Source: an uncultured Gemmatimonadota bacterium (lineage in GTDB: Bacteria > JAAXHH01). From it: a stretch of DNA of 64,000 bases. The stretch lies in assembly GCA_951812955.1 (NCBI GenBank), contig OX638340.1, positions 1,248,001 through 1,312,000 on the forward strand, read 5' to 3'. The stretch's first letter is position 1. Each line of letters opens with the position of its first letter. The notes beneath the pieces were generated by a model. The model was given only the letters and a program-made list of their open reading frames with translations. It had not been told where the DNA came from and made no database searches. The translations under genes were made by a program, and so were the position numbers. Positions 6,870 through 34,306 of the stretch are shown in pieces.

Positions 6870-8714
6870 ATGAACGGCAAGAGACCCAACGTCATACTGG
6901 TTATCACTGACGACCAGGGATACGGGGACCTGGGTTGTACGGGCCACCCCTGGTTGAGGACGCCAAGTATCGATGCATTTCACCGCGACGCGGTCCGCCT
7001 TGCGGATTTCCACGTTTCGCCTCTGTGTACGCCGACGCGCGGAGCCTTGATGACGGGACGGCGACCCGTACGAAACGGCGCATGGGCGACCTGCTGGGGA
7101 CGGTCCATCCTACGGAAGTCCGAGACGACCATGGCGGACGTTTTCAGCGAGGCCGGGTACCGAACCGCCATGTTCGGAAAGTGGCACCTGGGCGACAACT
7201 ATCCCTATCGTCCCCAGGACCGGGGATTCCGGCACGTGGTGGCCCACAAGGGCGGGGGCGTGGGACAGACGCCCGATTTCTGGGGCAACAATTACTTCGA
7301 CGACACCTATTTCCAAAACGGGGAGCCCGTGGAACACGCCGGATACTGCACGGACGTGTGGTTCGACGAGGCGATCCGTTTCATCGAGGGGTGCGCGGCC
7401 GGCCGGTCCGCCGGTTCGTCGCCAGCGCAGAGGCAGCGCCAGGAAGCATCCCCGGCCAGTCCGAACGGAGCGGACAGAGCGGACAGTCCGAACGGAGCGG
7501 ACGGAGCGGACGAGCCGTTCTTCGTTTATCTGGCAACCAACGCACCGCACACCCCTTATCTCGTGTCCGAGGAATACGCCCATCCGTACCAGGGTATTCA
7601 AGATATACCGGAACCCGAGTTCTGCGGAATGATCGCGAACATCGACGAGAATTTCGGCCGACTGCGGCGTACGCTGGCACAACTGGGTCTGGAAGAAAAC
7701 ACCATCCTGGTCTTCATGACCGACAACGGGAGCTCCGGTGGCAGTGAACTCGATGAAAACCAGCACGCGGTGCGAGGTTACAACGCGGGGATGCGGGGCA
7801 AGAAGGGCTCCTACTACGACGGCGGTCATCGCGTGCCCTTCTTCCTTCGCTGGCCTGGAGGCGGTCTCGGGGGAGGACGTGACGTGGACGAGATGACCCT
7901 CCACGTAGACATCCTGCCGACACTCGTCGCGTTGTGCGGGTTGGACGAACCCGATGTGGACTTCGACGGGGTCAGTGTGGCGCCGCTACTTCGTGGTGAG
8001 CGGTCGGGCCTGCCCGGCGACCGGGTGCACTTTCTTCAGTACCGGCAGGATACCGTGCCTCCGGAGAAATGGACCAGCGCGGTCATGACCCGACGTTGGC
8101 GGCTGGTGCGGGGAAAGGAACTGTACGATATCAAGGCCGATCCGGGACAGTGGTGTGATGTCGCCCGGGAGCATCCCGACGTGGTGGACCGGCTGCGATG
8201 TAATCACGACGCCTGGTGGGACGAGATATCACCCGGTCTCGATGTGTATTGCCCCATCGAACTGGGAAGCCCCGCCGAGAATCCCACCCGCCTCTGCGCC
8301 ATGGACGTCCTTGGCGACGTGGCCTGGCACCAGACCCATATTGCCCGGGCACAGGAGAGCAGCGGGACCTGGGCCGTCGAGATCGAAAGGCCGGCCCGCT
8401 ACCGGTTCAATCTTCGCCGGTGGCCCGCCGAACGCGAGCTTGCGATCGACGGCGTGATACCGCCGGACGAGGCGCGCCGCCTTATCTATGCGCCTGAAGA
8501 TGCGGGCGCGCTGGCCATTCAGCCCGTCGAAGCACGCCTGTCCCTGTTCGGTCAAACACACCGCATGACAGTGAGTAAAGGCGATACGGCCGTCGAATTC
8601 ACCCTCGAAATCACACATACGGGTGTGACGAACCTGGAAGCCTCCTTCGTCGACGTGACCGGAGATGCCAGGGGAGCGTTCTATGTGGATGTCGAGCGGC
8701 TGGATGAGGTTTAG
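6870..8714 (+). CDS. formylglycine-dependent sulfatase, no signal peptide, with an acidic low-complexity insertion
   Basis: ATG at 6870 preceded by AAGGAG. NVILVITDDQGYGD...CTPTRGALMTGR...GKWHLG. Insertion SPASPNGADRADSPNGADGADEP is encoded by an 18-bp nucleotide repeat at ~7440-7515. Confidence 0.85.
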   Translation: MNGKRPNVILVITDDQGYGDLGCTGHPWLRTPSIDAFHRDAVRLADFHVSPLCTPTRGALMTGRRPVRNGAWATCWGRSILRKSETTMADVFSEAGYRTAMFGKWHLGDNYPYRPQDRGFRHVVAHKGGGVGQTPDFWGNNYFDDTYFQNGEPVEHAGYCTDVWFDEAIRFIEGCAAGRSAGSSPAQRQRQEASPASPNGADRADSPNGADGADEPFFVYLATNAPHTPYLVSEEYAHPYQGIQDIPEPEFCGMIANIDENFGRLRRTLAQLGLEENTILVFMTDNGSSGGSELDENQHAVRGYNAGMRGKKGSYYDGGHRVPFFLRWPGGGLGGGRDVDEMTLHVDILPTLVALCGLDEPDVDFDGVSVAPLLRGERSGLPGDRVHFLQYRQDTVPPEKWTSAVMTRRWRLVRGKELYDIKADPGQWCDVAREHPDVVDRLRCNHDAWWDEISPGLDVYCPIELGSPAENPTRLCAMDVLGDVAWHQTHIARAQESSGTWAVEIERPARYRFNLRRWPAERELAIDGVIPPDEARRLIYAPEDAGALAIQPVEARLSLFGQTHRMTVSKGDTAVEFTLEITHTGVTNLEASFVDVTGDARGAFYVDVERLDEV

Positions 8715-8774
8715 AGCCGGCCTGCTGTTCGACTATCTGTGGCTCGGATCGAATGTGAAACCGAAGCGTAAGAC

Positions 8775-9713
8775 CTAAGCCGTCACCCCGTGACGGATGC
8801 CAAGCGCCCCGGAGAACCTTTCGATGGAAGTCGCCAGCCCGTCGATCAGTCCCTCGTCAAAGGCTGTCAACCTGGCGTCCGTAGATCGGCAGCGCGTGGT
8901 GATGGGCAATCCGACGCGTTGCAGGTACCGCTTGCAGGTCACGAGGTACTTGTTGTTCACGACCGGCGCCAGGGCAGTCATCATCCGTTGTACCTCCTCC
9001 GCCGTTTCCGGCTGTCCGTCATATTCCGCGCACAGCCAGGAGAACAGTTCGGGAAACACGTTGGCGGCAACGGGCGAAATGCCCGCGGCGCCGTGGCGCA
9101 GCCCCTCGAGACCGGTTTCGAAATGGGCGTTGTAGACACCGAGCCGCGTAGACCTTACAGCGTCGATCTTCCGCCTTAGTATATCGATATTGCAGGCGGT
9201 ATCCTTGTGATATAGGAACCTGTCTGTGCTGCCGAAATGACCGAAGAGACCGGGCGAAATGAGCCGGTGATAGGGCGTTGGACATTCGTAGAGACCCAGC
9301 GGGACAGGGTCGGTCAGTTCGAGCAACCGCTCCATATTCCGTTTAAGCACTTCCTCGCTCTCGTCCCGGCCGGCCAGCAGGCAAACGATGACGACTACCG
9401 CGTCCACGCCCGTACCGGCCATGCGCCGGACGAAATCGGCCTGGCCGTCGACCGGACCGCCGAAGGTGCCAGTCGCGACCACCGGTACCCGTCCGCCGGC
9501 CCGCTGTACGACGCGGCGGGTCACCTCCAGGCGTTCGTCATCGTCCAGGTGAAACATCTCGCTTGAACCACAGCAGGCAAAGAGTCCGGCCGATCCTCTT
9601 TCGATGTACCAGTCGGTCAGGGCATCCACGCCCCGCCAGTCGATGGATCCGTCTTCGTGAAAGGCGTTGAGCATCACCGGCCAGAGGCCGCGTGGCAGTT
9701 TATTCATAGACAT
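8775..9713 (-). CDS. DapA/NAL-family class I aldolase (dihydrodipicolinate synthase / N-acetylneuraminate lyase-like)
   Basis: MSMNKLPRGLWPVMLNAFHEDGSIDWRGVDALTDWYIERGSAGLFACCGSSEMFHLDDDERLEV matches the DHDPS-family N-terminal pattern. Start set at a true internal ATG; the ORF-track upstream extension is unlikely. Confidence 0.65.
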   Translation of the reverse strand: MSMNKLPRGLWPVMLNAFHEDGSIDWRGVDALTDWYIERGSAGLFACCGSSEMFHLDDDERLEVTRRVVQRAGGRVPVVATGTFGGPVDGQADFVRRMAGTGVDAVVVIVCLLAGRDESEEVLKRNMERLLELTDPVPLGLYECPTPYHRLISPGLFGHFGSTDRFLYHKDTACNIDILRRKIDAVRSTRLGVYNAHFETGLEGLRHGAAGISPVAANVFPELFSWLCAEYDGQPETAEEVQRMMTALAPVVNNKYLVTCKRYLQRVGLPITTRCRSTDARLTAFDEGLIDGLATSIERFSGALGIRHGVTA

Positions 9714-19472: not shown

Positions 19473-20948
19473 ATGTCCATAGTCAAGACCAGCGTAAGCC
19501 ATCCAATCCGCGTCGATGCAGTACGTCCGAGGGACGGTTTCGGCCAGATCGGCGTCACCCTGTGTCCCGGCAAAAAGTATCCCTGGGGAATTGCGGGGAA
19601 CTGGGAACGCGACCTGTGCCTGGACCTCGAAAGGATCAGAAAGTGGGGCGCGACGGCGGTAGTCAGCCTGATCACCGAGGAGGAAATACGGGACCTGCAA
19701 GTTCAGGACATCTCAAGGGCGGTTGCGGACCGCCATATGGAGTGGTGGCACCTGCCCATCCCGGACGGGCAGCCACCCGGACCAGACTTCGAAAAAGCCT
19801 GGGTTCATGCGGGAGCGGCCATCCGGGACCGCCTGCGACTCGGATTCGACGTGCTCGTCCATTGTAAGGGCGGCCTGGGCCGCGCGGGTACGGTCGCCGC
19901 GCGGTTGCTCGTTGAGTTCGGCGAAAATCCGGACGAAGCGATACGGCGCGTTCGAGCGGCACGCTCGCAAAACGCCCTCGAAACGCGCGACCAGGAACGC
20001 CACGTAAAGCAATGCGCGCGGGCAGCGCCCACTCGACCCGTCACGACAGAAGAAAGCATCCGGGACCGCGCGATCGGCGCCTTCCTGGGTCTCGCGGTAG
20101 GGGACGCGGTCGGCACGACGCTCGAGTTCCGGGGCCGCGACGCGCAGGAGCGGGTGGACGATATGGTAGGCGGTGGTCCGTTCAATCTGTCAGCCGGCGA
20201 ATGGACCGACGACACCACCATGGCGCTGGCCCTGGCCGACAGTCTCGCCGAATGCGGGACGCTCGATTGCCGGGACCTGATGGACCGGTTCGTCCGATGG
20301 TGGAAGAAAGGCGAATACTCATGCACCGGGAGTTGCTTCGACATCGGGAATACCACGAGCGCGGCGCTTTCACGCTATGTGCGGACAGACGATCCGATCG
20401 CTGGTTCCACCGAATCCCGCGCCGCGGGAAACGGTTCGCTGATGCGGCTCGCCCCGGTCGCACTGCGCTACTGGGACGACCGCGCCTTGCTCGACGCCAC
20501 GGCGGCAGAACAGTCCCGGACCACCCACGGGTCCGAGGAGGCGGTGGACGCCTGCCGGGCCTTCGCGGAACTGCTTGCGGACGCCATCGCGGGCAAAGCA
20601 CGGGTGGAAGTCCTCGCCCCGAGGTCCTTCGATGGAGCACCGGCCGTCGCCCGGATTCTTGGTGGTAGCTGGCGCGGCCTTGCCCGGAGAAAGATCAGTT
20701 CGAGCGGATATGTGATAGACACCATGGAAGCCGCGTTATGGTCCGTCGCCCGCACCTCCGATTTCCGGGGCGCCGTGCTGCTCGCGGCCAACCTGGCTGA
20801 TGACGCCGACACGGTCGCCGCGGTGACGGGGCAGCTCGCCGGAGCGCTCTACGGCCTGAGCGGCATTCCCGGCGACTGGCTTGATCAGGTCGCGTGGAAG
20901 GATCGACTCCTGGACGTGGCGGGCCGATTGACGAGCAGAACCATCTGA
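19473..20948 (+). CDS. two-domain protein: N-terminal Cys-based protein-tyrosine/dual-specificity phosphatase-like domain (HCKGGLGRAG, CX5R) fused to C-terminal ADP-ribosylglycohydrolase (ARH/DraG family)
   Basis: VLVHCKGGLGRAGT P-loop in domain 1. AIGAFLGLAVGDAVGTTLEF, GEWTDDTTMALALADSL, SGYVIDTMEAALW and DADTVAAVTGQLAGALYG ARH signatures in domain 2. Confidence 0.75.
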   Translation: MSIVKTSVSHPIRVDAVRPRDGFGQIGVTLCPGKKYPWGIAGNWERDLCLDLERIRKWGATAVVSLITEEEIRDLQVQDISRAVADRHMEWWHLPIPDGQPPGPDFEKAWVHAGAAIRDRLRLGFDVLVHCKGGLGRAGTVAARLLVEFGENPDEAIRRVRAARSQNALETRDQERHVKQCARAAPTRPVTTEESIRDRAIGAFLGLAVGDAVGTTLEFRGRDAQERVDDMVGGGPFNLSAGEWTDDTTMALALADSLAECGTLDCRDLMDRFVRWWKKGEYSCTGSCFDIGNTTSAALSRYVRTDDPIAGSTESRAAGNGSLMRLAPVALRYWDDRALLDATAAEQSRTTHGSEEAVDACRAFAELLADAIAGKARVEVLAPRSFDGAPAVARILGGSWRGLARRKISSSGYVIDTMEAALWSVARTSDFRGAVLLAANLADDADTVAAVTGQLAGALYGLSGIPGDWLDQVAWKDRLLDVAGRLTSRTI

Positions 20949-25489: not shown

Positions 25490-26254
25490 ATGTCACGAAG
25501 GCGCGTATTCATTGGAGACCTGACACGTAAGGAGTTCCGCGAAGGGATCGAGGACGGTACAATCAAGGCCGCCATCGTGCCCACGGCGGCTACGGAACAG
25601 CACCTCGAACACCTTGAAATGATCCACGACACGGCCAGTGTCGCTTACATGGCTGAACACGCGGCCCTTGAGTTGTATCCCCAGGTCGTCGTCGCTTCTC
25701 CCATCGCCATTGGCGTATCGGAACACTGGATGGAACACAGAGGAACGCTGACGGTCCGTCCCGAGATCTTCACCGAATACGTCTACGATGTGTGCGATGC
25801 CCTGAAGCGGGGCGGGATAACCAACATCCTTATTCTGAATGGACACGGCGGCAACGTAGTCCCGATGATGAACCGGATAGAGGACTTTCGGCGACGACTC
25901 GGCGTCAACGTGCGCTTCAATTCCTACTGGGACACCTACCCCACGGATTTCGTGTATCGGTACATGGAACGCGAAGCACTCCCCGGACACGCCGACGAAT
26001 ACGAGACCTCCATGGCCATGGCCCTCTTCCCGCACCGGGTCCACCCGGACGACATGGAAATGGAAAGCACCGCCCGTTTTGGAACGAAGGAGAAGGGCGA
26101 AGCTCTCGCGCCCGTGGCGGTGAACGGCGTGGCGGACTTGCTGATCCGAATGATCGCCGGGGAGGAGATCGACCTGGAACCCCGCACGTTCCGTGCAGCC
26201 GGCGCCCAGTCGATGATCCGGGATCGGCTCATCGAGGCGAGATCTGAGCAATGA
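25490..26254 (+). CDS. creatininase-family amidohydrolase (creatinine amidohydrolase / ArfB / MftE family)
   Basis: TEQHLEHL (ligand block), ILNGHGGN, ADEYETSMAM. AAGGAG RBS. Confidence 0.8.
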   Translation: MSRRRVFIGDLTRKEFREGIEDGTIKAAIVPTAATEQHLEHLEMIHDTASVAYMAEHAALELYPQVVVASPIAIGVSEHWMEHRGTLTVRPEIFTEYVYDVCDALKRGGITNILILNGHGGNVVPMMNRIEDFRRRLGVNVRFNSYWDTYPTDFVYRYMEREALPGHADEYETSMAMALFPHRVHPDDMEMESTARFGTKEKGEALAPVAVNGVADLLIRMIAGEEIDLEPRTFRAAGAQSMIRDRLIEARSEQ

Positions 26255-26295: not shown

Positions 26296-26392
26296 CGAAA
26301 AGCGCATCAAGGTGTGCAACGTATGAGAAGCGCATCAAGGTGTGCAACGTATGAGAAGCGCATCAAGGTGTGCAGCTTATGAGAAGCGTGTA
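26296..26392. repeat. 30-bp tandem direct repeat x3 (agcgcatcaaggtgtgcaacgtatgagaag)
   Basis: Read directly. The third copy has 2 substitutions. Confidence 0.85.
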
Positions 26393-26424
26393 CCAGTAGG
26401 TGTTACAAGAACTGGAGGTAGGGA

Positions 26425-27105
26425 TTGACAGACCGCAATGCCCATCCGTACTATACGAATCCGCGCCGGGGAGGTTCCTTTCCGGTACCTGTTTCAGCAG
26501 TGTTTGTCGTTCTGGTTGTGTTCTTCGTCGGGATTTCGGTCGCGTTACTCGCGTGTTCGGAATCGTCGCCAACGGAACCGGAAATGGGAGAGCACGGAAC
26601 GAACGGCGGGGAATCAGGTGAGGGCGGTGAAGGAGGTTCAGGTGAACATGGTGAAGGTGGCGAGGGTGGCGAGGGTTCTGGTGGCGAGGGTGGCGAAGAA
26701 TCCGGCAACGCGCTGACAAAGGATCAGACCTTTGATTCGGTGCGGAAGGGTGCTCGCCTCGTCCTGCGTTACGATTCCACCGCCGACGCCTTCGTCGGGA
26801 CTGTGTCGAATACCACCGATTCCACCCTGGTCCAGGTCCGTGTCGAAGTGCACCTGTCCAACGGCACGGAACTGGGCCCCACTACGCCGGTCGACCTCGC
26901 CCCGGGTGGGTCGGTGCCCGTCACACTGTCCGCCATGGGAGAATCGTTCGACGGCTGGACCCCTCACGCCGAAGTGGGTCCCTCCAGCGGAAGCGGCGGC
27001 GAGCATGGAAGTGGCGGAGAGTCAGGTGAGGGCGCCAGCGAGTCAGGTGAAGGCAGCGGGGGCGAACATGGTGGAAGTGGTGAAGGCGGAGGTGATGGGG
27101 GTTGA
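26425..27105 (+). CDS. hypothetical lipoprotein: signal peptide with LLAC lipobox, Gly/Glu/His-rich repeats (GEHG/GEGG) flanking a conserved ~90-aa core
   Basis: TTG start with GGAGG 8 nt upstream. RR n-region, hydrophobic h-region, VALLACSESS. Core LVLRYDSTADAFVGTVSNTTDSTLVQVRVEVHLSNGTELGPTTPVDLAPGGSVPVTLSAMGESFDGWTPHAEVG. Minus-strand Pro/Ser-rich ORFs here are shadows of the GGx repeats. Confidence 0.55.
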   Translation: MTDRNAHPYYTNPRRGGSFPVPVSAVFVVLVVFFVGISVALLACSESSPTEPEMGEHGTNGGESGEGGEGGSGEHGEGGEGGEGSGGEGGEESGNALTKDQTFDSVRKGARLVLRYDSTADAFVGTVSNTTDSTLVQVRVEVHLSNGTELGPTTPVDLAPGGSVPVTLSAMGESFDGWTPHAEVGPSSGSGGEHGSGGESGEGASESGEGSGGEHGGSGEGGGDGG

Positions 27106-27209
27106 ATGTACAGCGCCATACCCAGCATCACCGCGACATTGATGCGGCATTGGACGAGGGAACAGTAAAGGAGGACGAATTGTCAACATCCAATATACGT
27201 TCAAACGGT

Positions 27210-27983
27210 ATGAATCCCCAGCCGGCGAATCACGCCCCGGAATCGGCTTTAACCGCGTTTGCTTTTTTGAGTGTACTCTTCGCCCTGGTTTCGGTCACGG
27301 CCTTGGCGTGTTCAAATGACGCGGGTGAAAACCAGTCCACGTCCGATACGGCACGGATGGTAGCTGTCGATGCGCAGCAGAACGGCGAAGCATCGGAGTC
27401 GCGTGGCGGAGAAAGGGCTTCCAGCGGGGAATCAGGTGAGCACGGCGGGGATGGCGAAGCGATGGAATCCGGCGGGGAATCAGGTGAGTACGGTGGGGAT
27501 GGCGGAGAAAACGAAGGCGAGGGGGGCGGTAGTGACGAAGGCGAAGAATCCGGCGCGTTGCTGGCCCTGGATGAGACCTATGATACGGTACGCAGAGGCG
27601 CCCGGCTTATCCTGAACTACGACGCCGGTACCAATTCCTTCGTCGGAACGGTGTCGAACACCACCGGTGAAACCCTTCGCCGCGTCCGGGTCGAAGTGCA
27701 CCTGTCCAACGGCACGGAACTGGGCCCCACGACTCCTGTCGATCTCACTTCGGGTGAGATGACCGAAGTTACCCTTTCTGCAACGGCAGAACCTTTTACC
27801 GGCTGGACGCCCCATGCCGAGGTAGACACGGGGGACGGTAGCGGAGGCGAGCATGGTGAAGGCGGTGAAGGCGGTGAAGGCGGTGAAGGCGGCGGTGAGC
27901 ATGGTGGACGCGGTGAAAGCAGCGAAGGTGGTGGAGAGGACGGCGAGCACGGTGAAGGTGGCGAGGGTGACGGGAGCGCGTAA
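27210..27983 (+). CDS. paralog of the preceding lipoprotein (same conserved core ~70% identical, longer GEHG/GEGG tails)
   Basis: MNPQPANHAPESALTAFAFLSVLFALVSVTALACS signal. Core ARLILNYDAGTNSFVGTVSNTTGETLRRVRVEVHLSNGTELGPTTPVDLTSGEMTEVTLSATAEPFTGWTPHAEVD. Start chosen at the ATG preceding the signal; the ORF-track start at 27102 is TTG with an acidic, non-signal-like extension. Confidence 0.55.
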   Translation: MNPQPANHAPESALTAFAFLSVLFALVSVTALACSNDAGENQSTSDTARMVAVDAQQNGEASESRGGERASSGESGEHGGDGEAMESGGESGEYGGDGGENEGEGGGSDEGEESGALLALDETYDTVRRGARLILNYDAGTNSFVGTVSNTTGETLRRVRVEVHLSNGTELGPTTPVDLTSGEMTEVTLSATAEPFTGWTPHAEVDTGDGSGGEHGEGGEGGEGGEGGGEHGGRGESSEGGGEDGEHGEGGEGDGSA

Positions 27984-28191
27984 GGCGGTGAAAGAGGCGA
28001 AGGCGGCGGGGGGCGACGAACACGGAACAGGCGGTGAAGACCGCGGCGAACATGACGGAGGCTGAGACTGGTTCGTATGCCATGTACCAGAATCCGTGAA
28101 AAACACCGCTTGATCGTACTCCTCAATGGACCTATTGTAACAACCAGCACATCAACATTACCGCCTGATAAAGAGTGATCGGAAAAGCAAA

Positions 28192-29292
28192 GTGCAACCA
28201 ACGCCAGCCAACCCAAGCCTGAAACAAATCCCGCTCCTGACCGCGAGCCAGATCGCCCGGTTCAAGCGCGACGGCTTCCTCGTTCTTCCCGCCGCGCTAG
28301 ACCCCGAACTCTGCCGCCAGGCCAGGGACGCGATGTGGGCCGCGGTGGCAACGCACCATCCCGTCATGAAGCGCGACGATCCCTCCACCTGGGCGCCGTT
28401 CAACGATGAAGTAAGCGGCCAACTTAAAGCGAAGCAGCCCGAGATCGGCGGGGACCCCTATTTCTTCACCGAAGGCCACCGCTTCTATGTCCGAAATGGC
28501 ACCGAGCCACTCATGCTCGATCTGGCCCCCAGACCCTTGTGGCAGGTCGCCGAGCAATTACTTGGTCAGGGCACGGTGGTATGGCCCGCCGGAGCGGATG
28601 CGTCCGGCATGACGACGGGACCGTGCTTCATGTCCGACGAAGCGGTGAGCGGTCTGGCCAGCCATGGAGTCAAAGAGACCGGGCAATGGCCTGAGAAGGG
28701 ATCCTTCACCACGGAAGAAGCGCTGCGCCTGCCCAGGACCGGTCCGGTGTGGTCGACCGGACAAGGGACACGCGGTTTGTACTGCACCCTGCCCAACAGC
28801 CCGTCTCCCGGTCCGGATTACCGCCGCGCCCATTCGGACGGGGTCTGCTACGGACGCGTCCGGTTTCAGGTAACCGCTTATGTCGACGACCTGCCGGCCA
28901 ATTCCGGTGGCTTCACGGTGTGGCCAGGCAGCCACAGACGAATCTGGCGCGAGCAGTGGCAGACCTTTCTCGAAGGTGAAAAGTACACGGACGACAACCT
29001 GGCGGAACGCAAGGCCGACGGTTATAACGATCCCGTCATCCAGCGCATCAAGGCCGACACCCGACCCGTTGATTGCCACGGTCCCGCCGGCACGGTGGTC
29101 TTGTGGCACACCAAGATCCTGCATATTGCCGGACAGAATACCTCCTCAGATATCATTCGCCAGGCAACTATCTACGGTTTCATGAAAACGCCGGAATCCC
29201 TTCCCGATCCGCTTGTAACGGACCACACCAACATGGATATCTGGCGTGACTGGTCCGATGAAGTGCGGGCTGTTGATGAGCGCCAGGAATAG
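28192..29292 (+). CDS. PhyH-family Fe(II)/2OG dioxygenase
   Basis: LTASQIARFKRDGFLVLPAAL, HSDG (HxD), WPGSH, VVLWHTKILHIAGQN. GTG start with GGAAAAG upstream. Confidence 0.7.
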   Translation: MQPTPANPSLKQIPLLTASQIARFKRDGFLVLPAALDPELCRQARDAMWAAVATHHPVMKRDDPSTWAPFNDEVSGQLKAKQPEIGGDPYFFTEGHRFYVRNGTEPLMLDLAPRPLWQVAEQLLGQGTVVWPAGADASGMTTGPCFMSDEAVSGLASHGVKETGQWPEKGSFTTEEALRLPRTGPVWSTGQGTRGLYCTLPNSPSPGPDYRRAHSDGVCYGRVRFQVTAYVDDLPANSGGFTVWPGSHRRIWREQWQTFLEGEKYTDDNLAERKADGYNDPVIQRIKADTRPVDCHGPAGTVVLWHTKILHIAGQNTSSDIIRQATIYGFMKTPESLPDPLVTDHTNMDIWRDWSDEVRAVDERQE

Positions 29293-29433: not shown

Positions 29434-29661
29434 ATGGTCGAACTCAAAGTCCGAAAATTCGGCAACTCGCTCGGCGTCGTCCTGCCCAAGGAAGTCGTCA
29501 ATCGGCTGCGCACGAAGGATGGGGAGCCACTGTTCCTCACCGAAGGACCGGACGGCAGCTACAAGTTGACGCCCTACGATCCCAACTTTGCAGAAAAGAT
29601 GGAGATGGCAGAAAAGATCATCGACCGCTATCGCAACACACTCCATGTCCTGGCCAAGTGA
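29434..29661 (+). CDS. AbrB/MazE(SpoVT)-fold antitoxin
   Basis: MVELKVRKFGNSLGVVLPKEVVNRL swapped-hairpin motif. AGGGGG RBS. Imperfect palindrome GTTATTAC-N5-TAGTAAC ~20 bp upstream. Confidence 0.7.
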   Translation: MVELKVRKFGNSLGVVLPKEVVNRLRTKDGEPLFLTEGPDGSYKLTPYDPNFAEKMEMAEKIIDRYRNTLHVLAK

Positions 29662-30053
29662 CGGAGCCGGTCTGGATAGAAACACGCGATGCACTGATGT
29701 TGCACGAGCGCCTTATTGTGCTACACGGTGGTGCGGCGGGGGTGCGCGACAAAGGCTTGCTGCAATCAGCTCTGGCCCGAGCGCGTCAAATCTACGCGTA
29801 TTCGGATACGCCAGATCTCATCGAAATGGCGACGGCCTATACAGTGAGCATCGTGCGCAACCATCCATTTGTAGATGGCAACAAGCGTACCGGCTTTGTA
29901 GTCGGAATCCTGTTTCTTGAGCTGAACGGATTTCACTTCACCGCCACTCAAGCGTGCGCGGCTCAGTCCGTTATAGAACTAGCAGGCGGGTCACTTGATG
30001 AAGCGGGCTACACGGCGTTCCTGCGCGCGAATGTCGAAACGCTGAAAGGATGA
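29658..30053 (+). CDS. doc: Doc-family toxin (Fic/Doc fold)
   Basis: HPFVDGNKRTGF (Doc variant of the Fic motif), LHERLIVLHGG. GTG start overlapping the antitoxin stop (GTGA). Confidence 0.85.
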   Translation: MTEPVWIETRDALMLHERLIVLHGGAAGVRDKGLLQSALARARQIYAYSDTPDLIEMATAYTVSIVRNHPFVDGNKRTGFVVGILFLELNGFHFTATQACAAQSVIELAGGSLDEAGYTAFLRANVETLKG

Positions 30054-30212: not shown

Positions 30213-31145
30213 ATGTCGACCATTACCAAACCGGGCAACGAAACCGGTGCCGATTCAGCTGTCGAGCCCGCCGCCGCATTTGACGCCGACTCCACATCTG
30301 CCGCCGCCCCCGTTCCCATGACCGAGGAGCAGAAGTTCTTCTTCGACCTGAAGGGCTGGATCCTCGTGCCCTCCGTATTGTCGGAGACCGAGATCGAGGA
30401 AATGAAGGCCGAAGCGTACGCTGCGGTAAAACCGGACTATCAGGGTAAAAACAGCGACCTGCAACAGGGCTATCAGGGCATGCTGGCCAACCTGCTCGAT
30501 CATCCGGCCGTGGTGGGCATTCTGAACGAGATCCTCACCGAGCCGCCCTTTGTGGGGGACGACCATTACGGATTCCGCTGCGAGAACTCCTTCCTCATGG
30601 TGCGGGAACCCGGCTGGGAGTCGACTGTTAAGGGCACCGGGCTGCCCCATGTCGTGCGCCCTCCCCAGCAGGCCAACGCCATGCGCTACCAGGTGCAGGG
30701 CGGCAAGATCTTCGCGGGACTGACGCGCGTCGTATGGGAGTTGGAGGAAGTCCGGGCGGGGTACGGCGGCACCTCCTTTCTGAGCGGTTCGCACAAGGCT
30801 CATTTCAATTACGGCGGACCGGACCGGTACCGGCCCAACATCAGCGAATCGCCCTGGGAGGAAAGTCTATACGCCGCCATGGAGGATTACAGTTGTCCGC
30901 CGGGGTCGATGCTGGTCTTCACCGAAAGCCTCATCCACGCTGCGAACGATTGGACCAATCCGGACAACCGTCGATGCGCTGTATTCAACTGCTACAACTC
31001 GATCTGGGCGCAGTGGCACCGGCTCAATCTCGACCACGAGGTTATCGATAAGATGCCACCCAAGCGGCAGTCCCTCTTCCGCGGTGCGTGGCAACTGGGC
31101 GGCGACGGGAATCGTACGTACTCGGCGGACAATCGGTCGGTGTGA
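30213..31145 (+). CDS. PhyH-family Fe(II)/2OG dioxygenase paralog
   Basis: MTEEQKFFFDLKGWILVPSVLSETEIEEMK PhyH N-terminus, GSHK..., SLIHAAN. ATG with GGAGG RBS. Confidence 0.65.
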   Translation: MSTITKPGNETGADSAVEPAAAFDADSTSAAAPVPMTEEQKFFFDLKGWILVPSVLSETEIEEMKAEAYAAVKPDYQGKNSDLQQGYQGMLANLLDHPAVVGILNEILTEPPFVGDDHYGFRCENSFLMVREPGWESTVKGTGLPHVVRPPQQANAMRYQVQGGKIFAGLTRVVWELEEVRAGYGGTSFLSGSHKAHFNYGGPDRYRPNISESPWEESLYAAMEDYSCPPGSMLVFTESLIHAANDWTNPDNRRCAVFNCYNSIWAQWHRLNLDHEVIDKMPPKRQSLFRGAWQLGGDGNRTYSADNRSV

Positions 31146-31283
31146 ACCGGCTCGTCTACTCGAGTCGACCAGTGGCGCGCCTCGCCGCATTACCGGTCGG
31201 TGTCGGTTCGCACCGGCGAATACGTTCACGCGCCGACCGAAAAACGCACTCGAGCGTATACCATCCACGACGAAAGATATGAG

Positions 31284-32567
31284 ATGACCGAAATACCCGG
31301 TGGCCTGGATGCCGTCCCGCCGCACCCCCCTTCCGTCCCGCGAAGTTCCGACCTGAAGATCACCGCCGTGGAGACCCTCATCCCCGATGATATCATGCCG
31401 GGGTTGGTCCTGCTTCGGATCCACACCGACACGGGCGCCGTCGGCCACGGGGAGACCTACTACGTCCCCCACGCGGTGGCCGCCGTGATCCATGACTGGA
31501 TGGCCCGCCGTCTGCTGGGCAGCGATCCATGTTCTATCGAGCACCACTGGCGGTTTTTCTATGAACGCATGAGTGCTTTCGGATCCCGCGGAGCGGAGAT
31601 GCGTGCCTTGAGCGCCGTAGACCTGGCCCTCTGGGATATCCTCGGCCAGGTGTGCGGACTACCTGTCTGGCAACTACTGGGCGGAAAGGCGCGGGAAGCC
31701 GTACGAGTCTACAACAGTTGCGGCGGTCCCACCTATGGACGACGTCCACCCGGGGCGCCTTCGGAGCAGGGCTGGCCCGGCCACGGTGACATCGGCAAAC
31801 CAGGGCCTTTGGAAGACAACTGGGCAGCACACAACGCCGCGGGCGACCTGGCCGAGGAACTTGTGGCGGAAGGCTACACGGGCATGAAGTTCTGGACCTT
31901 CGACCGGGCGTACCGGGCCCACGGAGCGAGTTACCTTCCCATGTCTACGGTCCGGGCATGAGTCAAGCCTCTGGAGGAGGTGCGCAAACGGGTGGGCGAC
32001 CGGATCGAGATCCTCCTAGACGGCCACGGATTCTTCCAGTTGCCCGCGGCATTACGTATCGCCGAGGCTGTACGGGACCTGAACCTGATGTGGCTCGAAG
32101 ACGTCATGCGCCTGGACAACGTGGACACGCTCAGGGATTTCCGCGACAAGGCGGGCGTCCCCCTGGCCGTCAGCGAGATGTTCATCAGCCGGGAAGACTA
32201 CCGGCACGTGCTGGAGAAAAACGCGGCCGACTACCTGATGGTGGATCCCACCTGGGTGGGCGGCATCAGCGAGACCAGGCGCCTGGCCGAAATGGCCCAG
32301 GGCTACAACATCCCGGCAGCCATGCATGATTGTACCGGTCCTTTGACGCTCTTCGCGGGCATCCATGTCGCCACTTCCGTACCCAACGTCGTCATCCAGG
32401 AGTCCGTCCGGGCCCATATCCGGACCTTCTACGATCTGCTCATCGAGCCCAACATCGTCATCGAGAACGGTTTTGCCCGGCCACCGGGGGGACCGGGCCT
32501 GGGCACTCGACTGCGCCCGGAGCTTTTCGACCCTGATCACAGGGGATATCGGATCTCGCGAGGCTAA
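31284..32567 (+). pseudogene. enolase-superfamily (mandelate racemase / mannonate-galactonate dehydratase subgroup) gene interrupted by an in-frame TGA at ~31959-31961
   Basis: ORFs 31200..31961 and 31980..32567 are in the same frame. The N part has the capping domain (KITAVETL...). The C part has barrel blocks (LLDGHG, LMWLEDV, EMF, MVDPTWVGGISE, AMHDCTGP). The junction MSTVRA*VKPLEEVRKRVGDRIEIL is contiguous conserved sequence. Confidence 0.65.
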
Positions 32568-32610
32568 TCTGGAGAACCTGCGGCACAGCACAGCAAAAAC
32601 ATCCGGAACC

Positions 32611-33435
32611 ATGTCTATCAAACTAACCGATTACCACTTCGACGCGCTTGTGAATAAAGGGTACGTTGTTATTCACCGTTTCCTGCCGGAAGCACAGTGC
32701 GCCGAGATGGCGGCTGCCGTACGGCGACTGCTGCCTCCGTGGGAGGAGATTGAAGATGACTCGCCGGATGACCGCAAGGAAGCCTGCTATTTCCCTTATT
32801 CGGAACAGTGCCTGAACCAAGCCATCATCAATCCGGAAGCCATTCACTTTGCGCAACGCTGGCTTGAAACGGAACATATTCACTATCGACCGGGACTGGC
32901 GCTCGTCCGGTATCCGGGCTTCAAGGGTAATCGCGGCAAGAGTCATATCGATAACGGCAACAATTCGTTGCTGCCGCCGACGGAAACGGACCACACCCAC
33001 GCACAGCTGAATTTCTGGTTCTATCTCGAAGATGTTGCCGCCGACCAGGCACCGACCCTTTTTATCGCAAATAACGACAATCTCGACCTTAGCAAATCGG
33101 AAGCCATGGTGGCGCCTGCGGGTTCGGTGTGCGTTTTTCACAACTATACGCAGCATGCCGCCAGCGATTATGCGCGCAGCCAGGGGCAACGATACGTATG
33201 GAAATTCGCATTCGGCCGAGCGGACCACTACTGGGAGGGCGTGCTGCACTACACGGATGCCGGCAAGGATAAACACTTCCGGGAATTCATCGGATCCATT
33301 TCCGCCAGGGAACGCGAACTGTTCCGCTTCCCACCTGCCGGCCACCCATACTACACCGAACAGACCCTCGCGGCGCTGGAGGAACAATACCCGGGATGGA
33401 ATCGACGCAACGAGTACGCGTTTCAGTCCGGGTGA
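32611..33435 (+). CDS. PhyH-family Fe(II)/2OG dioxygenase paralog
   Basis: MSIKLTDYHFDALVNKGYVVIHRFLPEAQCAEM, HIDNG, VCVFHNYTQHAAS. Start at the internal true ATG; the ORF-track extension is Ser/Pro low-complexity. Confidence 0.65.
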   Translation: MSIKLTDYHFDALVNKGYVVIHRFLPEAQCAEMAAAVRRLLPPWEEIEDDSPDDRKEACYFPYSEQCLNQAIINPEAIHFAQRWLETEHIHYRPGLALVRYPGFKGNRGKSHIDNGNNSLLPPTETDHTHAQLNFWFYLEDVAADQAPTLFIANNDNLDLSKSEAMVAPAGSVCVFHNYTQHAASDYARSQGQRYVWKFAFGRADHYWEGVLHYTDAGKDKHFREFIGSISARERELFRFPPAGHPYYTEQTLAALEEQYPGWNRRNEYAFQSG

Positions 33436-33529: not shown

Positions 33530-34306
33530 ATGCTAAAGGCCGAGATAGTCGAAGCGGTTGATATCGAGCGCGCCGCCGCCATCTTCCACCGGGACGGATT
33601 CGTCTGCGTAAGCGACCCCATGGACGAGAAACAGTTCGCCCTGAACCGCTCGGGCGCCGAACGTGTTATGCAGGAGCAGGAAGCCGAATTCGGGCGTGAA
33701 AAAATGAACCGGGGGTTCGCGCGTCAATCTTTCGGAAGTCAGTTGCACAACTGGGAGTGGTGCATCCTGATCGACTTGCCGACAATACTGCCGATATTAG
33801 ATACGATCTGGAGTAGCGACGACTATACCTGCACCGGCGCCGGGGGCGACTATTCCCTGCCTGGCGCGAAGATCCAGCACCTGCACTCCGATCGGAAAGA
33901 GGACATTTTCAATGATCCCCAGGGGCGGGTCAGCCTCCGGGACGTCCCGGCGCCCTTTATCGTAATCAACTTCACCATGGTGGATTTCACCGTGGAAAAC
34001 GGCGCCATCCGGTTCATTCCCGGCACCCATCGATCCCATGCGCCGATCCCTTCACTCGAAGAGGAACCGGAATGGATGCGCACCAACCACCTGTGCGCGC
34101 CGGCGAACACGGCCATCATCCGCGACGTGCGCTGCTGGCACGGGGGCACGGCGAACAACTCGGACATGAAACGGCCGATGACAAGCGTGGGATTCCATGC
34201 GCCGTGGCACCGCGCAGTCGAGGAGAAAACCTTGCCGAGGGAGCACTATAATCGGCTGTCTGCGCGGGCCCAGCGGCTGTGCCGGCATATCGTGGAGGCG
34301 GCATAG
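33530..34306 (+). CDS. PhyH-family Fe(II)/2OG dioxygenase paralog
   Basis: AAAIFHRDGFVCVSDPMDEKQ, HSD, FIPGTHRSH, RCWHGGTAN. Confidence 0.65.
   Translation: MLKAEIVEAVDIERAAAIFHRDGFVCVSDPMDEKQFALNRSGAERVMQEQEAEFGREKMNRGFARQSFGSQLHNWEWCILIDLPTILPILDTIWSSDDYTCTGAGGDYSLPGAKIQHLHSDRKEDIFNDPQGRVSLRDVPAPFIVINFTMVDFTVENGAIRFIPGTHRSHAPIPSLEEEPEWMRTNHLCAPANTAIIRDVRCWHGGTANNSDMKRPMTSVGFHAPWHRAVEEKTLPREHYNRLSARAQRLCRHIVEAA

Follow-up and report, generated by a model that had tools for sequence, protein, structure and literature searches.

Periplasmic binding proteins linked to two-component systems are of a known kind. This study concerns two tandem genes, ORF1 and ORF2 (open reading frames 1 and 2), on contig OX638340.1 of an uncultured Gemmatimonadota bacterium (assembly GCA_951812955.1), within a stretch of 64,000 nucleotides (nt) at positions 1,248,001 to 1,312,000 that is hereafter called the window. 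They belong to a family of uncharacterized lipid-anchored extracytoplasmic proteins, in which an immunoglobulin (Ig)-like core is surrounded by acidic tails of Gly, Glu, and His. What is new here is the family context, namely conserved FxLYD-like lipoproteins, two-component coupling, and an upstream box. We tentatively favor the reading that ORF1 and ORF2 encode extracytoplasmic lipoproteins that bind and buffer cations, probably transition metals.

The FxLYD domain (NF038353) and, more broadly, the DUF4352/YjhA-type Ig-like lipoprotein domains resemble these proteins in placing a beta-sandwich behind a membrane anchor. The branch found in the window differs from FxLYD in having its own invariant His/Glu set, an SNGTELGPTTP loop, a GEESG lead-in, and Gly/Glu/His tails. 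SilE and PcoE are periplasmic metal "sponge" proteins that are rich in His and Met and contain no Ig-like core. With SilRS and PcoRS, they offer a functional analogy: small extracytoplasmic proteins with disordered, ligand-bearing sequence, encoded beside an OmpR-type two-component system as its apparent output. In contrast, the window proteins lack Met, are acyl-anchored, possess a rigid beta-sandwich, and have no adjacent two-component system. The pairs ZraP-ZraSR, CpxP-CpxAR, and Spy-BaeSR share the logic of a sensor kinase combined with an inducible periplasmic binding or modulator protein. Members of the ZraP/CpxP/Spy family are alpha-helical and soluble; they are induced by stress and feed back on the kinases. 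The window proteins, however, are lipid-anchored and all-beta, and the kinase and regulator matches of the related loci fall far below equivalog cutoffs. Homology to SilE/PcoE or to ZraP/CpxP/Spy was not detected, with no Pfam or NCBIfam match at E ≤1.

The Streptomyces CseA-CseB-CseC system is similar in gene order and in the lipoprotein nature of CseA, but the lipoproteins are not homologous, no sigE-type sigma factor gene is a conserved neighbor, and an acidic His-containing motif common to lipoprotein and kinase sensor sets the present family apart. The His-rich loop of ZnuA and the C-terminal tail of SlyD are likewise disordered Asp/Glu/His/Gly-rich stretches on a folded domain. In the window proteins, however, His density is far lower (approximately 10%), Gly and Glu dominate, and homology is undetectable in such low-complexity sequence. 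CopC and the cupredoxins resemble the core only in general class, that of the Greek-key periplasmic beta-sandwich. Cupredoxins use Cys and Met ligands, and CopC uses an N-terminal His site, which the acylated mature N-terminus of the window proteins would preclude.

Core domain and tails

The original prediction described ORF1 and ORF2 as tandem paralogous lipoproteins with cores approximately 70% identical to each other, and both statements hold. Two plus-strand ORFs with signal peptides and lipobox Cys residues were found; the encoded proteins align at 47% identity over 204 amino acids (aa; BLASTP, E 2e-43), and the cores are 68% identical across 97 aa. At the DNA level, the copies, spaced 848 nt apart, share 74% identity along 241 nt. 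ORF1 begins with a TTG codon 6 nt past GGAGG (26414-26418). The mechanically called ORF2 spans 27102-27983; its true start is most likely TTG 27180, which stands 5 nt after AAGGAGG, rather than 27102. With these starts, the signal peptide is 43 aa long in both precursors and closes at a lipobox-like Cys after a hydrophobic stretch. By the relaxed pattern match used for all lipobox calls, such a Cys is present in 93 of 120 homologs, and in some relatives (locus L034) a transmembrane anchor replaces the lipoprotein anchor.

AlphaFold2, supplied with an 80-sequence alignment, confidently models the core as a seven-strand Ig-like beta-sandwich. In this model, 89 core residues reach a predicted local distance difference test score (pLDDT) of ≥90, and the trimmed core gives a mean pLDDT of 89.5 and a predicted template modeling score of 0.78. 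The beta-sandwich proposed earlier is thus borne out by the model. The accompanying guess of a CopC-like or cupredoxin-like domain did not survive: Pfam returned no match to CopC or copper-binding families, Foldseek of the core model against the PDB gave 0 matches at E ≤1e-3, and the proteins offer no Met or Cys ligands besides the lipobox Cys. A hidden Markov model (HMM) search of PDB sequences with the core likewise gave 0 matches at E ≤10. The Pfam search of the core yielded sub-threshold noise only (INV_N, GRP, FixG_C, TOBE, DUF7507, and DUF7537).

The NCBIfam model NF038353 (FxLYD_dom), with a cutoff of 23 bits, scores 20.5-21 bits against ORF1 and 18.9 bits against ORF2. Because 77 of the 80 relatives match this model at E ≤0.01 (best 4.3e-8) despite the sub-cutoff scores of the window proteins, we assign the core, by profile similarity, to a divergent branch of the FxLYD beta-sandwich domain or superfamily. 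The earlier statement that the core belongs to no recognizable family therefore stands only insofar as no curated Pfam family covers it; a divergent FxLYD domain, just under the cutoff, is recognizable. The motif that gives the domain its name, F-x-L-Y-D, is replaced by V-H-L-S-N (within VEVHLSNG), which is invariant in the family. The FxLYD domain itself has no assigned function. A homolog in Wukongibacter carries the NCBI label "FxLYD domain-containing protein", a query for cluster names of ten NCBI-sourced homologs returned none, and a literature search for the FxLYD domain or the core peptide VEVHLSNG found nothing relevant.

Conservation of the core is strong. In the 80 sequences, 22 core positions are invariant (R64, G66, L69, Y73, F80, G82, N86, T88, V95, R96, H100, L101, G104, E106, L107, G108, P109, T110, F132, W135, H138, and E140), and approximately 30 are free to vary. 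Almost fixed across phyla are the stretch V-R-V-E-V-H-L-S-N-G-T-E-L-G-P-T-T-P-x-D-L-x-P-G and the last strand, W-[ST]-[AP]-H-[AP]-E-V-G, and core identity between phyla amounts to 60-75%. Strand periodicity suggests that R96/E98/H100 and H138/E140 face outward. The divergent middle paralogs of three-copy arrays retain E98, mostly H100, G-T-E-L-G-P including E106, D114, H138, and E140.

The second component of these proteins is the Gly/Glu/His tails. Each ORF contains eight GEH/EHG motifs, whereas none of the other 586 segments of ≥60 aa in the reading frames of the window has more than three, and in some stretches of both ORFs G, E, and H account for 34-36 of 40 residues. Each window protein has four tail histidines, nearly always within a GEHG-type motif; the predicted Gly/Glu/His-rich tails are thus present, although the description "His-rich" was too strong. 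Among 120 homologs from independent assemblies, a C-terminal tail of ≥8 aa occurs in 76, of which 71 contain "EH", and the tail composition is G 40%, E 21%, S 10%, and H 10%, with no enrichment of Met or Cys. In 146 of 152 domain copies, a His follows the last strand within 30 residues, the positions peaking at +4 and +7, and approximately 72% of the copies have one at 3-9 residues. The tails are predicted to be disordered (AlphaFold2 pLDDT ~46-64). By these comparisons, acidic Gly/Glu/His tails appear as a trait of the whole family.

The repeats that encode the tails also show how tail length may change. A perfect 9-bp repeat (GGTGAAGGC) occurs in 4.2 copies at 27855-27892 in the ORF2 tail, and tail length is seen to shift, on the repeat structure, through 9-bp slippage. 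The ORF2 tail appears truncated because tail-coding sequence runs on to 28065 in another frame (ORF 27853-28065) and relatives align there: L036 and L039 align through 28024-28062, and the repeat families reach 28067. A nonsense change, together with a frameshift in a G-run, probably shortened it recently; the alternative is a sequencing error in the G-run.

Such repeats could in principle be artifacts, or the ORFs non-coding low-complexity sequence, since G-rich 9-bp repeats open ORFs on several frames and strands and the local GC-skew peaks at 0.175. We see next to no likelihood in this, given the 955 homologous proteins, approximately 1,000 clusters, and at least 564 genome matches described below, the confident fold, the intact Shine-Dalgarno sequences and signal peptides, and the same tail composition in independent assemblies. 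The last observation also answers the earlier concern that the GEHG stretches might be assembly artifacts.

Family distribution and architectures

A word-indexed search with the ORF1 core retrieved 955 proteins, typically 120-170 aa long and 60-73% identical to the query. The number of clusters recovered by HMMER from 1.84 billion representatives falls from 998 at E ≤1e-3 to 819 at E ≤1e-10 and 432 at E ≤1e-30; the approximately 1,000 family clusters are clusters at 50% identity, and many of them carry two or three domain copies. A genome scan, which covered one genome per species and whose ranking is biased toward the query, returned at least 564 relatives. The family spans at least ten phyla. 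Nearly all of the best 80 relatives are metagenome-assembled genomes (MAGs), joined by the isolate Wukongibacter baidiensis; their labels comprise Caldilineaceae, Dehalococcoidia, other Chloroflexota, Ca. Poribacteria, Spirochaetia, Latescibacterota, Gemmatimonadota, Acidimicrobiia (including Ca. Poriferisodalis), Gammaproteobacteria, Rhodobacteraceae, and Vicinamibacterales. This set of taxa and the MAG prefixes COS, IRC, and RHO presumably reflect marine-sponge microbiome studies. No relative was found among viral contigs, and tblastn gave no match in PLSDB, the plasmid database searched. A published host list (PMC8163846) gives partial support to the sponge association of these taxa.

The architectures are varied. 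Tandem arrays of two or three copies, or fusions of two or three domains, occur in 23 of 81 loci, some as a single protein of ~500 aa with G/E/H linkers. The core is also fused as the outer domain of a BlaR1-type M56 signal transducer, and it accompanies Cache domains, TbpB-like barrels, DUF3500, and a GH43-like domain. These fusions fit a portable extracytoplasmic (ligand-)binding module. Three-copy arrays were observed in Caldilineaceae (L043, L056, L057, L068, and L082) and in other Chloroflexota and Dehalococcoidia (L033, L051, L067, L072, and L076). The middle copy scores 24-68 bits against the family HMM and has its own conserved Cys (…TLC[YF]VQ…); in Caldilineaceae, its H100 is changed to Asn, and in several genomes the three domains form one polypeptide. 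Wukongibacter baidiensis (L001/L007), the only cultured organism found with the module, encodes a second family copy behind a Cu_amine_oxidN1-type stalk domain (8609-9577); downstream come, in this order, a 455-aa protein that matches no Pfam family, the regulator, and the kinase.

Multi-domain tandem versions and the frequency of the family in sponge-type MAGs would also suit a structural or adhesive surface protein, whose Ig-like domain, kept at a distance from the membrane by acidic linkers, would attach to host matrix, exopolymer, or mineral surfaces much as the beta-sandwich repeats of biofilm proteins and adhesins do. However, adhesin repeats are usually variable, whereas the family core is nearly invariant across phyla. 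Dedicated two-component control with matching acidic His-containing sensors, considered next, would likewise be unexpected for a simple adhesin, and we regard this role as improbable.

Two-component systems and the upstream box

Neighbors of the family gene were clustered for 82 loci, 81 of which are distinct. An OmpR-type regulator and a HAMP-HisKA kinase adjoin the family gene or genes in approximately 25 of the 81, directly downstream or divergently, and this two-component system is the only neighbor conserved across phyla. The remaining neighbors are confined to particular lineages: a GH-like enzyme, PhyH, ABC peptide transport, a GFO/IDH oxidoreductase, and restriction-type genes. Within the main lineage, regulators are 63-73% and kinases 52-60% identical between Chloroflexota classes and Spirochaetota. 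Non-orthologous systems adjoin the gene in Wukongibacter, Ca. Poriferisodalis, and one Dehalococcoidia MAG; identity among the at least four lineages is 27-46% for regulators and 22-36% for kinases. Since at least four non-orthologous lineages stand next to the gene, the association arose or was kept several times. The kinase sensors of all four lineages contain an acidic, His-containing stretch, for example "REGEGEGHGEGEGESSESFH", "GEEHEQKASESGEEHE", "NEESDHEKNESNEKLGHEKNE", and "HAASGEGSSESDDAEGAAGGAAHDDG", and no Pfam family matched these sensor domains.

All NCBIfam matches of the neighboring kinases and regulators lie under their cutoffs. In the main lineage, the best matches are the BaeS model (kinase, 199 bits) and the PhoB model. 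At the Poriferisodalis locus L073, the locus-best matches are the heavy-metal models TIGR01386 (cztS_silS_copS) for the kinase (188 bits, cutoff 292.6) and TIGR01387 (cztR_silR_copR) for the regulator (192 bits, cutoff 279). Against these two models, the kinase of L003 scores 146 bits and its regulator 172, with the BaeS and PhoB models higher, and the CseB model matches a regulator at E 4e-57 (193 bits, cutoff 350). The genes in the window are orphans: no kinase adjoins them or the family gene in 11 syntenic relatives, and thus they stand without an adjacent two-component system.

These arrangements bring an accessory or co-sensor role into view, in which the core docks on the extracytoplasmic domain of the kinase and modulates signaling for an envelope or other cue, with the tails as mere spacers and without sequestration; CseA for CseBC, NlpE or CpxP for CpxA, and LpqB for MtrB would be analogs. 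The order lipoprotein-regulator-kinase is the cseA-cseB-cseC layout, adjacency recurs in the ~25 of 81 loci, the 60-75% conservation of the core across phyla suits a protein-protein interface, BaeS, an envelope-stress kinase, is the closest match of the main kinase lineage (under the cutoff, as noted), and the core forms the sensor-side domain of a BlaR1-type transducer. Nevertheless, specific docking is hard to reconcile with one core pairing with at least four non-orthologous kinases whose sensors are unrelated besides their acidic His stretches. More than two thirds of the loci, the window included, have no adjacent kinase, arrays of two to three copies with variable tails point to dosage or capacity, and a spacer role leaves the conserved "EH" of the C-terminal tails unexplained. 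We therefore consider a co-sensor unlikely.

The tails and the kinase sensor stretches are both strongly anionic, which would also suit a decoy or sensor for cationic organic compounds (antimicrobial peptides, polyamines, or alkaloids) or a His-based pH-responsive element, by analogy with the acidic patches of PhoQ and GraS and the anionic loops of LbpB. TbpB-like barrels, to which some members are fused, belong to surface lipoproteins, and a relative of these, LbpB, turns anionic loops against lactoferricin. The nearest genomes are, moreover, host-associated (sponge-type) MAGs. Charge-based capture, however, leaves the near-universal tail His and the invariant core His and Glu residues unexplained, and the family is also present in the free-living isolate Wukongibacter and in contigs of general JGI and TARA metagenome collections. 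A role of this type appears improbable.

A candidate regulatory site was found upstream of many family genes. In Chloroflexota, the box reads ACATATTT(C/G)TGC(G/A)ACATTTC, and its Spirochaetia form is GATATTCCTGCGACATTT. This Pho-box-like direct repeat, whose period is 11 bp, extends over the -35 position of a promoter with a TATC(A/G)T -10 element; its geometry is that of OmpR/PhoB-family sites, and we predict it to be a site for the regulator. The box precedes the first lipoprotein gene in 22 genome loci of Chloroflexota and Spirochaetota and lies 190-400 nt upstream of the first core (L003, L004, L021, L031, L033, L066, L067, L072, L076, L082, and others). It also occurs at L084, L089-L091, L097, L098, L100, L102, L104, L105, and L107. 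An exact-match scan of JGI metagenome contigs gave 25 sites, 11 with the full promoter context and on independent contigs, and all 11 stand before a family lipoprotein gene (deleted or chimeric in L089); four of the 11 contigs go on to encode a regulator and a kinase, and two more stop inside the regulator gene or shortly past it. In these metagenomes, the box was not found ahead of any other gene type, the 14 remaining matches being without the flanking promoter context of family loci. The box is absent from the window and from its 11 syntenic relatives.

Two further features accompany the box. In the 5' untranslated region, after the -10-like box, an inverted repeat occurs, ATGAGGGnnnnnCCCTCA in Caldilineaceae and CGAGG…CCTCG in Spirochaetia, and these hairpins may form a leader structure. 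On metagenome contig Ga0055442_10020003 (L089), at ~100-1130 in box orientation, a lipoprotein N-terminus comprising the signal peptide, the linker, and the first core residues (…EESGTELALNETYDD) continues without a break into the HisKA region of the kinase (ISHELNTPLS…). Either the core, the regulator, and the kinase sensor have been lost in a natural deletion, or the contig was chimerically assembled.

A proposed role in cation binding

Under the favored reading of cation binding and buffering, the rigid Ig-like core would display a fixed polar set, consisting of R96, E98, H100, the S-N-G-T-E-L-G-P-T-T-P loop, D114, H138, and E140. Together with the core, the disordered (G/S)-E-G-G and G-E-H-G tails around it would bind and buffer a cation outside the cytoplasm. 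That cation would most likely be a divalent transition metal, and Zn, Ni, Co, or Cu(II) would be preferred over Cu(I) or Ag(I) because the ligands are Glu and His, with no Met or Cys. Repeat number and gene copy number would set the capacity of the tails, which could serve as a low-affinity, high-capacity collector of adjustable length, and the core could provide a specific site or a partner surface for a sensor kinase. Gene arrays and tail slippage fit such a stoichiometric binding function. In many other genomes, the family gene opens a self-contained lipoprotein-regulator-kinase module, apparently as its main output, and where present, the two-component system would induce the lipoprotein, a form of control that we infer from genomic context. 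The adjacent two-component systems, with their similar sensor stretches, and the upstream box lend indirect support to the metal binding proposed earlier, which we consider plausible.

Several points weigh against this proposal. The histidine content of the tails is modest, at four residues per window protein, and the Gly/Glu-rich segments could be mere flexible anionic spacers. No metal transporter, efflux pump, resistance gene, or oxidase is a conserved neighbor in the related loci. The main kinases resemble the BaeS/PhoR type at least as much as CusS/CopS, and all matches are under curated cutoffs. Seawater Ca and Mg would fill purely carboxylate sites. Finally, because the window and its 11 relatives have neither a two-component system nor the box, the regulatory part is borrowed from other lineages.

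A broader version of cation buffering would be a "sense-and-sequester" module. Here, a kinase with an acidic His-containing sensor would drive, through the Pho-box-like site, Ig-like lipoproteins with expandable GEHG/GEGG tails and an invariant His/Glu core that capture the same cation, and the module and its orphans would have spread horizontally among the phyla of marine sponge microbiomes, buffering metal concentrated by the host. We offer this version as speculative and rather doubtful.

The locus in the window

The features of the locus are collected in Table 1. The original prediction placed the two genes between a creatininase-family gene and a cluster of PhyH oxygenase genes, and Pfam confirms this context, with four PhyH genes within 6 kb (28192-29292, 30213-31145, 32365-33435, and 33530-34306). 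The flanks of the window are 81-88% identical in DNA to the 11 syntenic loci, labeled Latescibacterota, Gemmatimonadetes, or "bacterium", each of which has one family gene between the creatininase and PhyH genes. The ORF2 core is 74-78% identical in amino acids to the single copy of these MAG loci. The ORF1 core most closely resembles the copies of Caldilineaceae and Spirochaetia (72-74%) and is 69-71% identical to those of the syntenic relatives. On these identities, ORF2 is taken as the ancestral syntenic copy and ORF1 as an extra copy.

Table 1. Positions of the two lipoprotein genes, their parts, and adjacent features, numbered from the first letter of the window
Feature	Position	Strand	Remarks
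Creatininase-family amidohydrolase, upstream neighbor	25490-26254	+	Pfam PF02633, E 1.6e-40; ~82% nt identity, 11 related loci
28-bp tandem repeat, 3.2 copies, nearly perfect (AAGCGCATCAAGGTGTGCAACGTATGAG)	26300-26388	.	takes up most of creatininase-ORF1 gap, 170 nt
ORF1, 226-aa lipoprotein precursor	26425-27105	+	TTG start, Shine-Dalgarno GGAGG 26414-26418
ORF1 signal peptide (43 aa) and lipobox Cys codon 26554-26556	26425-26556	+	...GISVALLA/C
ORF1 N-terminal Gly/Glu/His linker, 45 aa, two GEHG motifs, conserved GEESG at end	26557-26691	+	AlphaFold2 pLDDT ~46-56
ORF1 core, 97-aa FxLYD-like seven-strand beta-sandwich (predicted)	26692-26982	+	family HMM 160 bits
ORF1 C-terminal Gly/Glu/Ser/His tail, 40 aa, two GEHG motifs	26983-27102	+	AlphaFold2 pLDDT 53-64
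ORF2, 267-aa lipoprotein precursor	27180-27983	+	likely TTG start, Shine-Dalgarno AAGGAGG 27168-27174
ORF2 lipobox Cys codon	27309-27311	+	…VTALA/C
ORF2 N-terminal acidic Gly/Glu/Ser linker, 76 aa, 48-nt internal repeat, GEESG at end	27312-27539	+	
ORF2 core, 97-aa FxLYD-like beta-sandwich (predicted)	27540-27830	+	family HMM 155.7 bits
ORF2 C-terminal GEHG/GEGG tail, 50 aa	27831-27980	+	holds 9-bp repeat 27855-27892
Tail-coding remnant past ORF2 TAA stop	27984-28065	+	other frame reads …GGDEHGTGGEDRGEHDGG then stop
PhyH-family dioxygenase, downstream neighbor	28192-29292	+	Pfam PF05721; collinear with relatives

ORF1 and the 28-bp repeat upstream of it occupy a stretch of ~0.9 kb. The repeat is absent from the 11 syntenic relatives and therefore came with the ORF1 insertion or arose after it. 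It could be a regulatory array or an insertion scar; as a conserved operator, it was rejected on its lack of conservation in these relatives. The string "TGTGCAAC" is common to the 28-bp repeat and the Caldilineaceae box, probably by coincidence. In L016, the one relative in which this junction was inspected, the likely lipoprotein start (ATG 7824) falls within the 3' end of the creatininase-family ORF (7067-7831), which suggests co-transcription of the two genes; in the window, the 0.9-kb ORF1 insertion separates them. A functional tie to the creatininase and PhyH genes was considered and set aside, as nothing beyond conserved synteny within one clade speaks for it. PhyH genes lie near the family gene in Caldilineaceae loci as well (e.g., L003, 11465-12187).

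Other genes in the surroundings were recorded. A gene with a mandelate racemase/MLE N-terminal domain (31200-31961) lies within the PhyH cluster. An inserted toxin-antitoxin pair separates two PhyH genes; it consists of overlapping genes for a MazE/AbrB-type antitoxin (29434-29661) and a Fic/Doc-family toxin (29658-30053). Farther upstream, 19473-20948 encodes a 491-aa fusion of a DSP-PTPase "Swiss Army Knife"-type phosphatase and an ADP-ribosylglycohydrolase, an unusual signaling or toxin-like pairing.

Significance

If the favored reading of cation binding is true, these lipoproteins would constitute a new family for extracytoplasmic cation or metal handling, comprising approximately 1,000 clusters and having no Pfam model, structure, or paper. 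The proposal is directly testable, owing to a clear domain boundary, a short list of candidate ligands, a predicted regulator site, and the availability of Wukongibacter baidiensis as a carrier in culture. Should the ligand prove not to be a metal, the recurrent pairing with non-orthologous two-component systems bearing the same motif would still represent a convergent sensor-effector design. Little is known of the metal and host-interface biology of sponge symbionts; because the core maintains 60-75% identity across at least ten phyla and is frequent in sponge-type MAGs, it is a candidate marker for an adaptation that these symbionts share and that may have spread by lateral transfer.

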